Positions 36,568 to 44,157 of a stretch of 64,000 nt of DNA are shown here, one piece after another. Position 1 is the stretch's first letter. Each line of letters opens with the position of its first letter. Where the stretch lies: NCBI GenBank assembly GCA_014816185.1, contig GCA_014816185.1_4095.1. One strand, 5' to 3'. Both the position numbers and the translations under genes were made by a program. The notes below the pieces were generated by a model. The model was not told the origin of the DNA, searched no databases, and saw only the letters and a program-made list of their open reading frames with translations. The stretch comes from a phage.

Positions 36568-36909
36568 ATGACTATTGCAATTGCTCAATCTAACTTTGAA
36601 AATGAAATCATCGCTCAGACACTGCGTTTAAGTGATGGTCGGGCCGAAATTAATTACGGTTTCAATTCAGGCGGTTGTGAAAAATATCAGTACTTTGTAA
36701 CGGCTGATGGCGGTGTCCTGGGTATCAATACAGTTATTGTAAACATCCAGAAAATTAATTTCAATGATCCAGACGATAGCCAGTTTTACATCACTGGCGT
36801 AGACGTGAACTATGAGGATGACTCACTAACTGATGACCACACTGGCGAGAAGTTAGAAAGTGCATACGGTGAAGATGATTATCAGTCCGGTCCAGAAGAT
36901 TTCGAATAA
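36568..36909 (+). CDS. hypothetical acidic protein
   Basis: 113-aa ORF. Confidence 0.5.
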   Translation: MTIAIAQSNFENEIIAQTLRLSDGRAEINYGFNSGGCEKYQYFVTADGGVLGINTVIVNIQKINFNDPDDSQFYITGVDVNYEDDSLTDDHTGEKLESAYGEDDYQSGPEDFE

Positions 36910-37004
36910 TATAAAAAAAATAGTTTGACAATAGATTATAGTACTGTATAATAGTTTACATCAAGGGGAGAAAAACTTCTCCCCACTAACAGAGAGAAAA
37001 CAAA

Positions 37005-37733: not shown

Positions 37734-37832
37734 GATTATAGCCCACTGGTTAACGCTGGTGGGCTTTAATTCATTACCCTATACAATGCCAGTACTAAAC
37801 CGTTTATCTCGTTAGAATGCGTTACAGGACGT

Positions 37833-38036
37833 TTGACAATGATTAGCATGAAATCAGTACAAAAACAAATAGAAACATTATCAAAAATTAAACGTAAACA
37901 GTACTCGTTAGAATATACAATCAATGGTAACTATCATCTAATGAAAGAGAATAATTTCATTGTCATTGATGAATCATTGCAAGTTATTAGTATAGTACTG
38001 AAAGCATTAATCAATGACAGAAAAAAATTAAAATAA
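37833..38036 (+). CDS. hypothetical protein
   Basis: 67-aa ORF. Confidence 0.4.
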   Translation: MTMISMKSVQKQIETLSKIKRKQYSLEYTINGNYHLMKENNFIVIDESLQVISIVLKALINDRKKLK

Positions 38037-38365
38037 TCTATTGACAATATCCTCCAGTACTGGCATAATACTTACATCAAGACGAGAACGTCACTAACCC
38101 ATAGGGTGCACAAATGTAACTATATAATATCGATCAATAAATGATCAAAAAAGTACTGGATTAATTTAGCATAAGGCGTATAATTCTGATCAATTCTTGA
38201 TCAAAGGCAATATACGCAGTTGAATTTATATAGACAGTACAAAGGCGTTACTATCCGTGGTAATGCTGATGGATATGTAGTATCATATGGTTTGAATAAG
38301 ATAAACACTAGTAGTATTATTGTAGCATTACAGTACTATAGTATTTTTATAATGAGGTTAAAATA

Positions 38366-38623
38366 ATGGCAGTAGGATACGCGAAAGACGGGGCCGAACA
38401 AGACGAGATTCACGCAGTGATTCAGGCCGCCGTTAACCACGCTAGAAAGCAAATTAACGCACAAAGAGAATCACTAGTACATTGCCTCGACTGCGGCGAT
38501 AAAATCCCTGAGAATCGACGCCAGGCCGTTATAGGGTGCATGTATTGTATTACTTGCCAGGAGGATCATGATAGTACTTTTAAAAGAGATCCGCGTAATT
38601 GTTGGCATAGATCTATGAGATAA
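38366..38623 (+). CDS. TraR/DksA-family C4 zinc-finger protein
   Basis: HCLDCGDKIPENRRQAVIGCMYCITCQ fits the C-x2-C ... I-P ... R ... C-x2-C DksA/TraR signature. Confidence 0.55.
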   Translation: MAVGYAKDGAEQDEIHAVIQAAVNHARKQINAQRESLVHCLDCGDKIPENRRQAVIGCMYCITCQEDHDSTFKRDPRNCWHRSMR

Positions 38624-38687
38624 AAAGTAATTGACAGTACTGAAAGATAGTGTATAATGTTTTATATCTTAACTGAGGATAGTAATC

Positions 38688-39044
38688 ATGGGAATACAAC
38701 ATATCACGCGTACTACTGACAATGGCGAGATCACTGGCTATCAAGTACAGGGCAAAGTAGCACAATTGCAGTACTGGTTTGTTAAACGTGGAATCATTGC
38801 ACCGGATCTTGATTATGACCGTGTAGCGTTTATTGATTCTCTTTATGTTGATCCTGATAGTCGGGGCAATGGTGAAGGTAACGAATTAATGAATGCCTTT
38901 ATCGATGCCGCCGATGATTCAGATTGTATCATCTTAGAATGCGATACGGGAGAAGATAACGCCTTTAATCTTAAAGAATGGTACGAAGGATTCGGATTCG
39001 AGGTACTGATCGATAGTGAATATCCTATCATGATTTTATCATAG
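38688..39044 (+). CDS. possible small GNAT-like acetyltransferase
   Basis: LYVDPDSRGNGEGNELMNAFIDAA resembles GNAT motif A (R-x-x-G-x-G); 118 aa. Confidence 0.35.
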   Translation: MGIQHITRTTDNGEITGYQVQGKVAQLQYWFVKRGIIAPDLDYDRVAFIDSLYVDPDSRGNGEGNELMNAFIDAADDSDCIILECDTGEDNAFNLKEWYEGFGFEVLIDSEYPIMILS

Positions 39045-39116
39045 TACTTGCAATTAGTTTTCAGTACTGTTATAGTACTTACATCAAGGGGAAACGTCTT
39101 CCCCTACTAAGAGGAA

Positions 39117-39311
39117 ATGAAAATGGAAAACTTATCAAGTATTTTAGTACAAGATGATTTCGGTAATCCTGGAAGTGCTATCATAGTTCGGGGCAATAAA
39201 GCAACGTTTGTTATTGCTGGTGGACCCGTACAGCGTAGCATTAAAAATAATGCTGTTACCATTAATAATGTACGCTATCGCTTAGATAAAGAATTGATTC
39301 ATAAACTGTAA
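39117..39311 (+). CDS. hypothetical protein
   Basis: 64-aa ORF. Confidence 0.45.
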   Translation: MKMENLSSILVQDDFGNPGSAIIVRGNKATFVIAGGPVQRSIKNNAVTINNVRYRLDKELIHKL

Positions 39312-44074: not shown

Positions 44075-44157
44075 GTATTGACAAAGTATATTAGTACTGT
44101 ATAATAGTTTACATCAAGGGGAGAACTATTCTCCCCGATACTAAAAGGAATAAAATC

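Follow-up and report, generated by a model that had tools for sequence, protein, structure and literature searches.

A YbiI-type member of the DksA/TraR zinc-finger family encoded in the terminal-repeat-equivalent block of an Asteriusvirus jumbo coliphage: a candidate RNA polymerase secondary-channel binder

The closest described systems are F-plasmid TraR, Orf73 of phage lambda, DksA and E. coli YbiI. Working TraR homologues combine a C4 zinc knuckle, an N-terminal helix (residues 2-27) with a DxxDxA motif by the catalytic Mg, the residues R48/R49, and a C-terminal helix (residues 58-73) on beta-Si1 (PMC9239242, PMC6970531). In TraR, R48 contacts the beta' rim helices and R49 contacts beta'Si3, with a role for E46 as well (PMC9239242, PMC6970531), and the N-terminus already lies 4.3 Å from the catalytic Mg (PMC6970531). 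Lambda Orf73 binds RNA polymerase and inhibits rRNA and ribosomal-protein promoters; it also retards the growth of the host and increases the burst size. All five phage TraR homologues tested bind the polymerase and inhibit rRNA promoters (PMC9239242). Function cannot be predicted from the C4 finger by itself, as PMC9239242 and PMC6970531 emphasize, nor is the finger proof of RNA polymerase binding; some members of the family are not DksA-like (PMC9239242, PMC4010833). One of these is RSP0166, which has a C4 finger and a Glu in the motif and lacks the C-terminal helix (PMC4010833). The substitution D74E in DksA causes loss of function, while the equivalent D80E variant of Rhodobacter DksA works (PMC4010833). 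For the YbiI-type branch a solved structure is available (2KGO) but there is no established function. Overexpression of E. coli YbiI was reported, with data not shown, to rescue the auxotrophy of a dksA mutant (PMC2613031); a filtered literature search for ybiI otherwise turned up regulon listings without a mechanism, and no published polymerase-binding biochemistry for YbiI-type proteins was found.

The DNA analyzed here (referred to below as the window) is a stretch of 64,000 nucleotides from a 121Q/PBECO4-type jumbo coliphage of the genus Asteriusvirus. On its + strand, the ORF list and the sequence define an ORF at 38366..38623, which starts with an ATG at 38366, ends with a TAA at 38621-38623 and encodes 85 amino acids, MAVGYAKDGAEQDEIHAVIQAAVNHARKQINAQRESLVHCLDCGDKIPENRRQAVIGCMYCITCQEDHDSTFKRDPRNCWHRSMR. 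The first-pass annotation had placed a TraR/DksA-type zinc-finger protein at exactly this position. A Shine-Dalgarno sequence, GAGG, can be read 8 nt 5' of the ATG (38354..38357, + strand). Upstream lies a 48-codon ORF (38220..38366, + strand; gene 293 in the 121Q annotation) that belongs to PHROG_38664, of unknown function, and has a dN/dS of 0.24 with an invariant 3' third. The TAA stop codon of this ORF overlaps the zinc-finger ATG in the sequence TAATG, and the two genes are therefore possibly translationally coupled. A regex and frame scan revealed a single copy of the zinc-finger gene within the 64-kb window and no second copy or paralogue: the two other CxxC...CxxC strings are chance occurrences in non-coding frames. 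ORFs on the minus strand that overlap the zinc-finger gene are short and have no support.

A median dN/dS of 0.13 in 21 pairs of Asteriusvirus orthologues shows that the gene is subject to purifying selection. The substitutions observed among these orthologues spare residues 1-15 (except for Y5F) and the last ten residues. Of the seven other Asteriusvirus genomes compared, six contain full-length and intact orthologues. In the remaining one, CMSTMSU, the gene has indels, but so does every gene next to it, an indication of errors in the sequence and not of decay. The ORF at 38366..38623 is thus a real, conserved and selected zinc-finger gene of the DksA/TraR family.

The family label given by the first-pass annotation proved correct. 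The Pfam search that it had proposed as a check returned PF01258 (zf-dskA_traR) over residues 39-68 with 36.9 bits, above the gathering cut-off of 24.9 (E = 3.7e-9), so the objection of a missing profile match fails. PHROG_54, 'DksA-like zinc-finger protein', was matched at 8e-19. In a Foldseek search with the predicted fold, the six best matches were all family members, namely YbiI, TraR on RNA polymerase (6N57_M, 5W1S) and Chlamydia Dks, and most of the next places were filled by DksA and DksA2. TraR 6N57_M was matched with a TM of 0.52 and a probability of 1.00. The AlphaFold2 model used for these comparisons is of moderate confidence (pLDDT 71, falling to ~50 at both ends).

None of the NCBIfam equivalog models for TraR, YbiI or DksA reaches its cut-off with this protein. 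The best NCBIfam model is NF008243/PRK11019 (YbiI type), which covers residues 1-73 with 78.6 bits (cut-off 96). The scores for TIGR02419 (TraR subfamily; 49.1 bits, cut-off 59.7), NF010268 (TraR equivalog; 31.6 bits, cut-off 108) and NF033459 (DksA; 14.2 bits, cut-off 105) are lower. The N-terminal peptide MAxG(F/W)AxDGAxQ is present, together with a collinear full-length similarity to E. coli YbiI; the near-invariant N-terminus of the YbiI branch reads MAxG(F/Y)AKDGAxQ. When a profile built from 47 homologues was compared with the PDB, E. coli YbiI (2KGO) aligned end to end (E = 1.6e-28), whereas TraR aligned from mid-helix onward only (E ~1e-12). Judged by these sequence comparisons, the protein is a member of the YbiI branch and not TraR proper.

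Phage Ecwhy_1 encodes a protein of exactly the same sequence (100% identity), annotated as 'C-4 type zinc finger protein', so that the assignment to the family was already on public record. Orthologues in numerous other public genomes, among them 121Q, carry labels such as 'DksA-like zinc-finger protein' or 'TraR/DksA C4-type zinc finger protein'. The family assignment is therefore already known at the annotation level, and what is added here is the YbiI branch, the extended non-canonical tip, the phage-specific tail and the location in the putative early block that is equivalent to the terminal repeat. The homologues form three shells. The first comprises Asteriusvirus proteins (88-100% identity), and the second those of T4-like phages of Citrobacter, Escherichia, Enterobacter and Yersinia (62-72%), which share the C-terminal tail. 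The third is composed of bacterial YbiI proteins of 88 aa, which are 42-51% identical when aligned over the full length and 47-61% identical when aligned locally; the closest of these bacterial relatives (47-61%) come from environmental Gammaproteobacteria.

An exhaustive search of 1.84 billion representatives identified 573 clusters of relatives, and at least 81 of the 150 best-scoring 50%-identity clusters are of the YbiI type. Among the best 130 matches with a canonical C4 finger, 81 have a YbiI-type N-terminus and 21 a TraR-type DxxDxA, while none has both (DxxDxA occurs in 0/81 of the YbiI-type relatives). The two kinds of N-terminus are mutually exclusive in these 130 relatives, an indication that the family may be split in function. 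When bacterial genomes were scanned for the YbiI N-terminal peptide, 452 loci were detected, almost all of them in Proteobacteria, the phylum with the Si1/Si3 insertions used by TraR (PMC9239242). Some relative of the zinc-finger protein is present in 954 phage records. The possibility that the phage gene was recently captured from a host ybiI was considered and rejected on account of the low identity to E. coli YbiI (~39%), the environmental origin of the closest relatives in bacteria, and the distinct tail of the phage clade. The raised G+C content of the ORF (46% vs 35.5%) is insufficient by itself as an argument for such a capture.

The zinc-finger motif quoted in the first-pass annotation, CLDCGDKIPENRRQAVIGCMYCITC, corresponds to residues 40-64 (38483..38557, + strand) and, as had been stated, fits the C4 signature, in the form CxxC-x17-CxxC (C40, C43, C61 and C64). 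The regex and frame scan and the homologues agree on this knuckle. The four cysteines, I47, P48, R51 and R52 are invariant across the 47 homologues, and C58 is an extra, non-conserved cysteine. The segment IPENRR (codons 47-52, 38504..38521, + strand) is the counterpart of TraR I44-P45-E46-A47-R48-R49 in ungapped HMMER alignments. R51/R52 (47/47) align without gaps to TraR R48/R49, and E49, which corresponds to TraR E46, is invariant or nearly so. Within the globular domain, conservation peaks at IPExRR.

The most conserved segment across hosts is formed by the 12 N-terminal residues, as would be expected for a segment touching the universally conserved active centre. They belong to the near-invariant N-terminal peptide of the YbiI branch, MAVGYAKDGAEQDE (codons 1-14, 38366..38407, + strand), which was delimited by conservation in the 47 homologues: M1, A2 and G4 are invariant, and A6, K7, D8, G9, A10 and Q12 are at least 90% conserved. 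The acidic residues D8/E11/D13/E14 occupy the place where TraR-type proteins carry DxxDxA. The tip reads D8-G-A-E11-Q-D13 (DxxExD), and the canonical DxxDxA is absent. Codons 6-28 (38381..38449, + strand) are predicted by AlphaFold2, with moderate confidence (block pLDDT 50-77), to form a single N-terminal alpha-helix, similar in length to the TraR helix 2-27, which enters the RNA polymerase secondary channel, and its putative counterpart.

A MAFFT alignment of the N-terminus with TraR and Orf73 introduced arbitrary gaps and was discarded in favor of an ungapped register anchored on the zinc finger. In TraR, Orf73 and the phage protein, the (I/L)N motif lies 10 residues from Cys1. D8 and E11 are located 32 and 29 residues before Cys1, which is identical to the spacing of D3 and D6 in lambda Orf73 and within the 28-36 range of the 21 relatives bearing DxxDxA. 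In the comparison of the profile with the PDB, the tip region could not be aligned to TraR by sequence, so the proposed equivalence of the tips is one of spacing only. At position 11, E occurs in 35/36 phage-clade sequences but in 0/11 bacterial ones, all of which have V, and position 14 is E in 36/36 phage-clade sequences vs Q in 11/11 bacterial ones; position 13 varies within the phage clade (D, L, N or E). The five residues that precede the start point of Orf73, MAVGY, are part of the most conserved segment of the family. Given the 4.3 Å distance between the TraR N-terminus and Mg, these extra residues would need a different geometry.

The protein ends with a basic tail, FKRDPRNCWHRSMR (codons 72-85, 38579..38620, + strand), which homologue comparison and profile alignment identify as specific to the phage clade. 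C79, W80 and H81 are present in 36/36 phage-clade sequences, compared to S, K and D in the bacterial ones. This tail corresponds to that of bacterial YbiI, GYNRRGSKDSQLR, from which it has diverged, and the YbiI profile alignment runs through it. The bacterial-type tail itself is absent. The two tails are alignable and intermediates exist (P0057, ...HNRKVWHRSMR), but the difference between them is consistent. The structural model contains only a short helix at residues 62-68, followed by the conserved, non-helical tail (pLDDT ~50-64). According to this prediction, the tail would replace most of the TraR C-terminal helix (58-73), which makes the beta-Si1 contact.

In phage vB_Ec-M-J, a direct terminal repeat of 21.5 kb is annotated, and the orthologue lies within it, at a distance of 12.3 kb from the left end. 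Mapped onto the window, this repeat corresponds to positions of about 25,685-47,880, with the zinc-finger gene inside. The equivalent block contains 12 perfect TTGACA-16/17-TATAAT promoters compared to 0.13 expected, and 23 sites with no more than one mismatch, all on the + strand between 26,050 and 46,565. The discriminators of these sigma-70 promoters are AT-rich, with 1-3 G/C in 8. The likely promoter of the unit comprising the 48-codon ORF and the zinc-finger gene is TTGACA-17-CATAAT with an upstream TG (38041..38069, + strand; 11/12 matches in the scan), assigned because it is the nearest strong upstream promoter on the + strand and no terminator intervenes before the gene. A functional link with the downstream GNAT acetyltransferase gene is unsupported, as the latter has a perfect promoter of its own in the promoter scan (38631-38658, + strand) and is absent beside the zinc-finger gene in Salmonella phage SD-15_S21. 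The other neighboring ORFs are ORFans for which domain searches were uninformative.

PA5oct, a phage of the same RaK2-like clade, encodes no RNA polymerase of its own and is sensitive to rifampicin (PMC7318152), and the 121Q-like phage appears to rely on the host RNA polymerase. Judging from its position and promoters, the block probably represents an early takeover region transcribed by the host polymerase. In the T4-like phage phiR1-RT, the homologue is located between the primase (gp61) and dCTPase (gp56) genes, 2 kb from modA (polymerase ADP-ribosylase), which is an early/middle host-takeover neighborhood. A comparative paper on jumbo phages (PMC7824862) contains nothing on DksA/TraR proteins or on 121Q transcription.

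The first-pass annotation had also suggested that a phage copy could reprogram host transcription. Orf73 of lambda and four further homologues from phages are direct precedents for this (PMC9239242), and the early-gene, host-promoter context found here is compatible with it. Since the protein belongs to the functionally uncharacterized YbiI branch and carries no canonical DxxDxA tip, it is by analogy with TraR and Orf73 that we regard polymerase binding as probable. We consider it somewhat probable that the protein is an early binder of the host RNA polymerase secondary channel which acts like lambda Orf73. It would be made early in infection from the host-type sigma-70 promoters of the terminal-repeat region. 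[quoted passage not shown] Without ppGpp, open complexes would be destabilized at rRNA and ribosomal-protein promoters; these promoters, whose open complexes are short-lived, would be turned down, while the phage consensus promoters with their AT-rich discriminators would be spared. The insensitivity of the phage promoters would then shift the polymerase to phage genes.

A protein docked in this way may also act unlike TraR, as a plug or competitor of DksA, GreA or GreB (uncoupling, for example, phage transcription from the host stringent response), or as a direct inhibitor with the N-terminal peptide in the active centre. We regard this as unlikely, but several features point to it: the non-canonical tip DxxExD, in which D-x-x-E reproduces the acidic spacing of the Gre-factor DxxExA tip, the five extra invariant residues MAxG[F/Y] beyond the position of the TraR N-terminus near Mg, the predicted replacement of much of the beta-Si1-contacting helix needed for allosteric regulation by TraR, and the precedent of Rnk, which binds in the channel and does no more than compete (PMC9239242). 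General inhibition would extend to the transcription of the phage itself, which depends on the host polymerase, and polymerase binding as such is presumed from the sequence. The rim-contact residues are TraR-like, as any competitor needs, and thus the competitor and the Orf73-like readings are inseparable by sequence. A further, rather improbable idea is that the phage YbiI-type clade represents a distinct mechanistic variant, with an invariant seven-residue extension (MAxG[F/Y]AK) before D-x-x-E, in place of a terminal DxxDxA tip by the catalytic Mg, and a phage-specific Cys-Trp-His tail replacing the beta-Si1-binding helix. In such a variant the N-terminal peptide could enter or occlude the active centre, or the polymerase could be remodeled in a manner unlike that of TraR or DksA. 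If true, this would be the first function for the large bacterial YbiI family.

It is also conceivable, although on the whole unlikely, that YbiI-type proteins, including the phage copy, have a role unrelated to the secondary channel and use the DksA/TraR fold only as a scaffold. The role might be metal- or redox-linked, or might involve binding of nucleic acid or another host protein via the conserved termini. The conservation of the TraR contact residues IPExRR above the rest of the globular domain argues against this, as do the acidic residues in the TraR/Orf73 register, the gain of Glu at a critical position in the phage clade, the reported rescue of a dksA mutant by YbiI (PMC2613031) and the Proteobacteria-centred distribution, which matches that of TraR. 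These points have to be set against the inactivity of some C4 family members on the polymerase, the strong conservation of an N-terminus (without DxxDxA) and a C-terminal tail that are both subfamily-specific, and the scores of all equivalog models, which are below cut-off. That the ORF is a chance ORF or a decaying remnant without function is extremely improbable. Its small size (85 aa), the lack of annotation of the gene in the UB and CMSTMSU records and the interrupted appearance of the phiR1-RT homologue might suggest this, but the above-threshold profile matches, the good ribosome binding site, the dN/dS value and the full-length homologues across T4-like phages and bacteria speak against it, and conservation and purifying selection effectively refute it.

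The modest value of the gene is as a pointer to the YbiI-type branch. Lytic phages of two lineages keep a version of the protein with an acidic residue gained where TraR and DksA have a critical Asp, and the gene is placed among what are probably early genes for host takeover, transcribed by the host polymerase. This bears on the question of whether YbiI-type proteins are secondary-channel factors, and on how large lytic phages without a polymerase of their own redirect the host enzyme.

Among solved structures, E. coli YbiI (2KGO) is the best sequence match to the phage protein (85 vs 88 aa), and the two share the N-terminal peptide, the helix-to-finger spacing, IPxxRR and a basic tail ending in R. 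They differ in overall sequence (~39% identity), in E11 (Val/Asn in bacteria) and E14 (Gln in bacteria), and in the tail, which is GYNRRGSKDSQLR in YbiI and FKRDPRNCWHRSMR here. Moreover, ybiI is regulated by sigma-S and Fur, whereas the phage gene is found in lytic phages, behind sigma-70 consensus promoters. Lambda Orf73 is identical at 23/73 residues (32%) in the ungapped, zinc-anchored register (37% by MAFFT), shares the RR pair and the additional Cys ahead of the second CxxC (GC..C..CQED), and is likewise a phage-encoded accessory gene product. However, Orf73 starts at the tip (M-A-D3) with a canonical DxxDxA, while the protein described here has five extra residues and DxxExD, and its model shows a short C-terminal helix followed by the conserved tail. 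Orf73 originates from a temperate phage, and the present protein, known here from sequence alone, from a lytic jumbo phage.

The similarity to F-plasmid TraR (6N57, 5W1S) is ungapped from mid-helix through the zinc finger, with R(K/Q)(Q/K)INA, CxxCG, IPExRR and CxxCQ kept. Identity is 25-26% (18/73 in the ungapped, zinc-anchored register; 26% by MAFFT), DxxDxA is missing, and TraR P43 and K50 are replaced by K46 and Q53. With E. coli DksA (1TJL), the phage protein shares the globular domain with its C4 zinc finger and the Pfam family. DksA is larger, at 151 aa, and contains a coiled coil made of two helices, residues that bind ppGpp and a C-terminal helix that is long, in contrast to the 85 aa and the predicted single helix of the phage protein, which in this respect resembles TraR.

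The DNA around the zinc-finger gene was compared between window positions 37800-39200 and three loci of other phages (L003, L006 and L008). Nucleotide identity of the zinc-finger gene (38366-38623) was 88-91%, compared to approximately 99% for the adjacent GNAT gene between the same pairs of phages. In phage UB, the upstream 48-codon ORF was only 87% identical, compared to 97.7% for the zinc-finger gene. These unequal identities of neighbouring small genes imply mosaicism local to this region, with putative recombination breakpoints located between the genes. The zinc-finger ORF also differs from its surroundings in base composition: its G+C content is 46%, compared to 35.5% for the window, which places it in the top 1.6% of the window's 258-nt windows. 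This fits either a foreign origin or an amino-acid constraint; the nearest bacterial relatives of the protein are non-enterobacterial.

The 48-codon ORF (38220-38366; PHROG_38664) lies directly upstream, and its stop codon overlaps the start of the zinc-finger gene in the sequence TAATG. Across phages, its first 30 codons are very variable and its last 16 are invariant, and it is annotated in some genomes only. Selection on regulatory DNA, or on the ribosome binding site of the downstream zinc-finger gene, may account for part of this conservation in place of a coding constraint. Directly downstream, a gene for a GNAT acetyltransferase of 118 aa (38688-39044; Pfam PF00583, 4e-9) is preceded by its own perfect promoter (38631-38658). 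In Salmonella phage SD-15_S21, no GNAT gene adjoins the zinc-finger gene, and therefore linkage of the two is not obligate.

Two homologue records were irregular. In the record of phage CMSTMSU (L005), flagged UNVERIFIED_ORG, both the zinc-finger gene and its neighbours contain indels, probably as a result of sequencing errors. In phiR1-RT (L010, 3501-3753), the homologue was recovered as two tblastn pieces, with an annotated length of only 132 nt, and may represent a frameshift or a pseudogene.

Elsewhere in the window, a 113-aa ORF (36568-36909) is labelled 'DNA ligase' in the related phage vB_Ec-M-J and matches a PHROG bearing the same name (6e-9). This label is doubtful, since 113 aa is far below the size of a ligase and the ORF has no Pfam match; it is probably an annotation error passed between records. 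No tRNA or tmRNA genes were identified in the window (1-64000) using ARAGORN.

Window positions 25,685-47,880 are the counterpart of a direct terminal repeat of 21.5 kb in vB_Ec-M-J. The window extends beyond this segment on either side, indicating that the source assembly is permuted or that the repeat was collapsed. Within the segment, 23 sigma-70 promoters were found on the + strand when up to one mismatch was allowed, 12 of them perfect (0.13 expected); the 23 share the core TAGTACTG-TATAAT-AGTTTACATCAAG. In addition, 19 GGGGA-N5-12-TCCCC hairpins (0.10 expected) occur between 26,645 and 45,511, exclusively on the + strand (e.g., 36965-36984 and 44118-44136). Many start approximately 12 nt downstream of a -10 element, where early transcripts are predicted to begin. 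Folding of two of the hairpins yielded energies of -13 to -14 kcal/mol (z = -2.8 to -3.6). Candidate roles are mRNA 5' stabilisation, control of the ribosome binding site, or a processing site. The likely promoter of the zinc-finger gene itself (38041) has no such hairpin. The promoter-rich layout of 25,685-47,880 is reminiscent of that of T5, whose pre-early region lies inside the terminal repeat.
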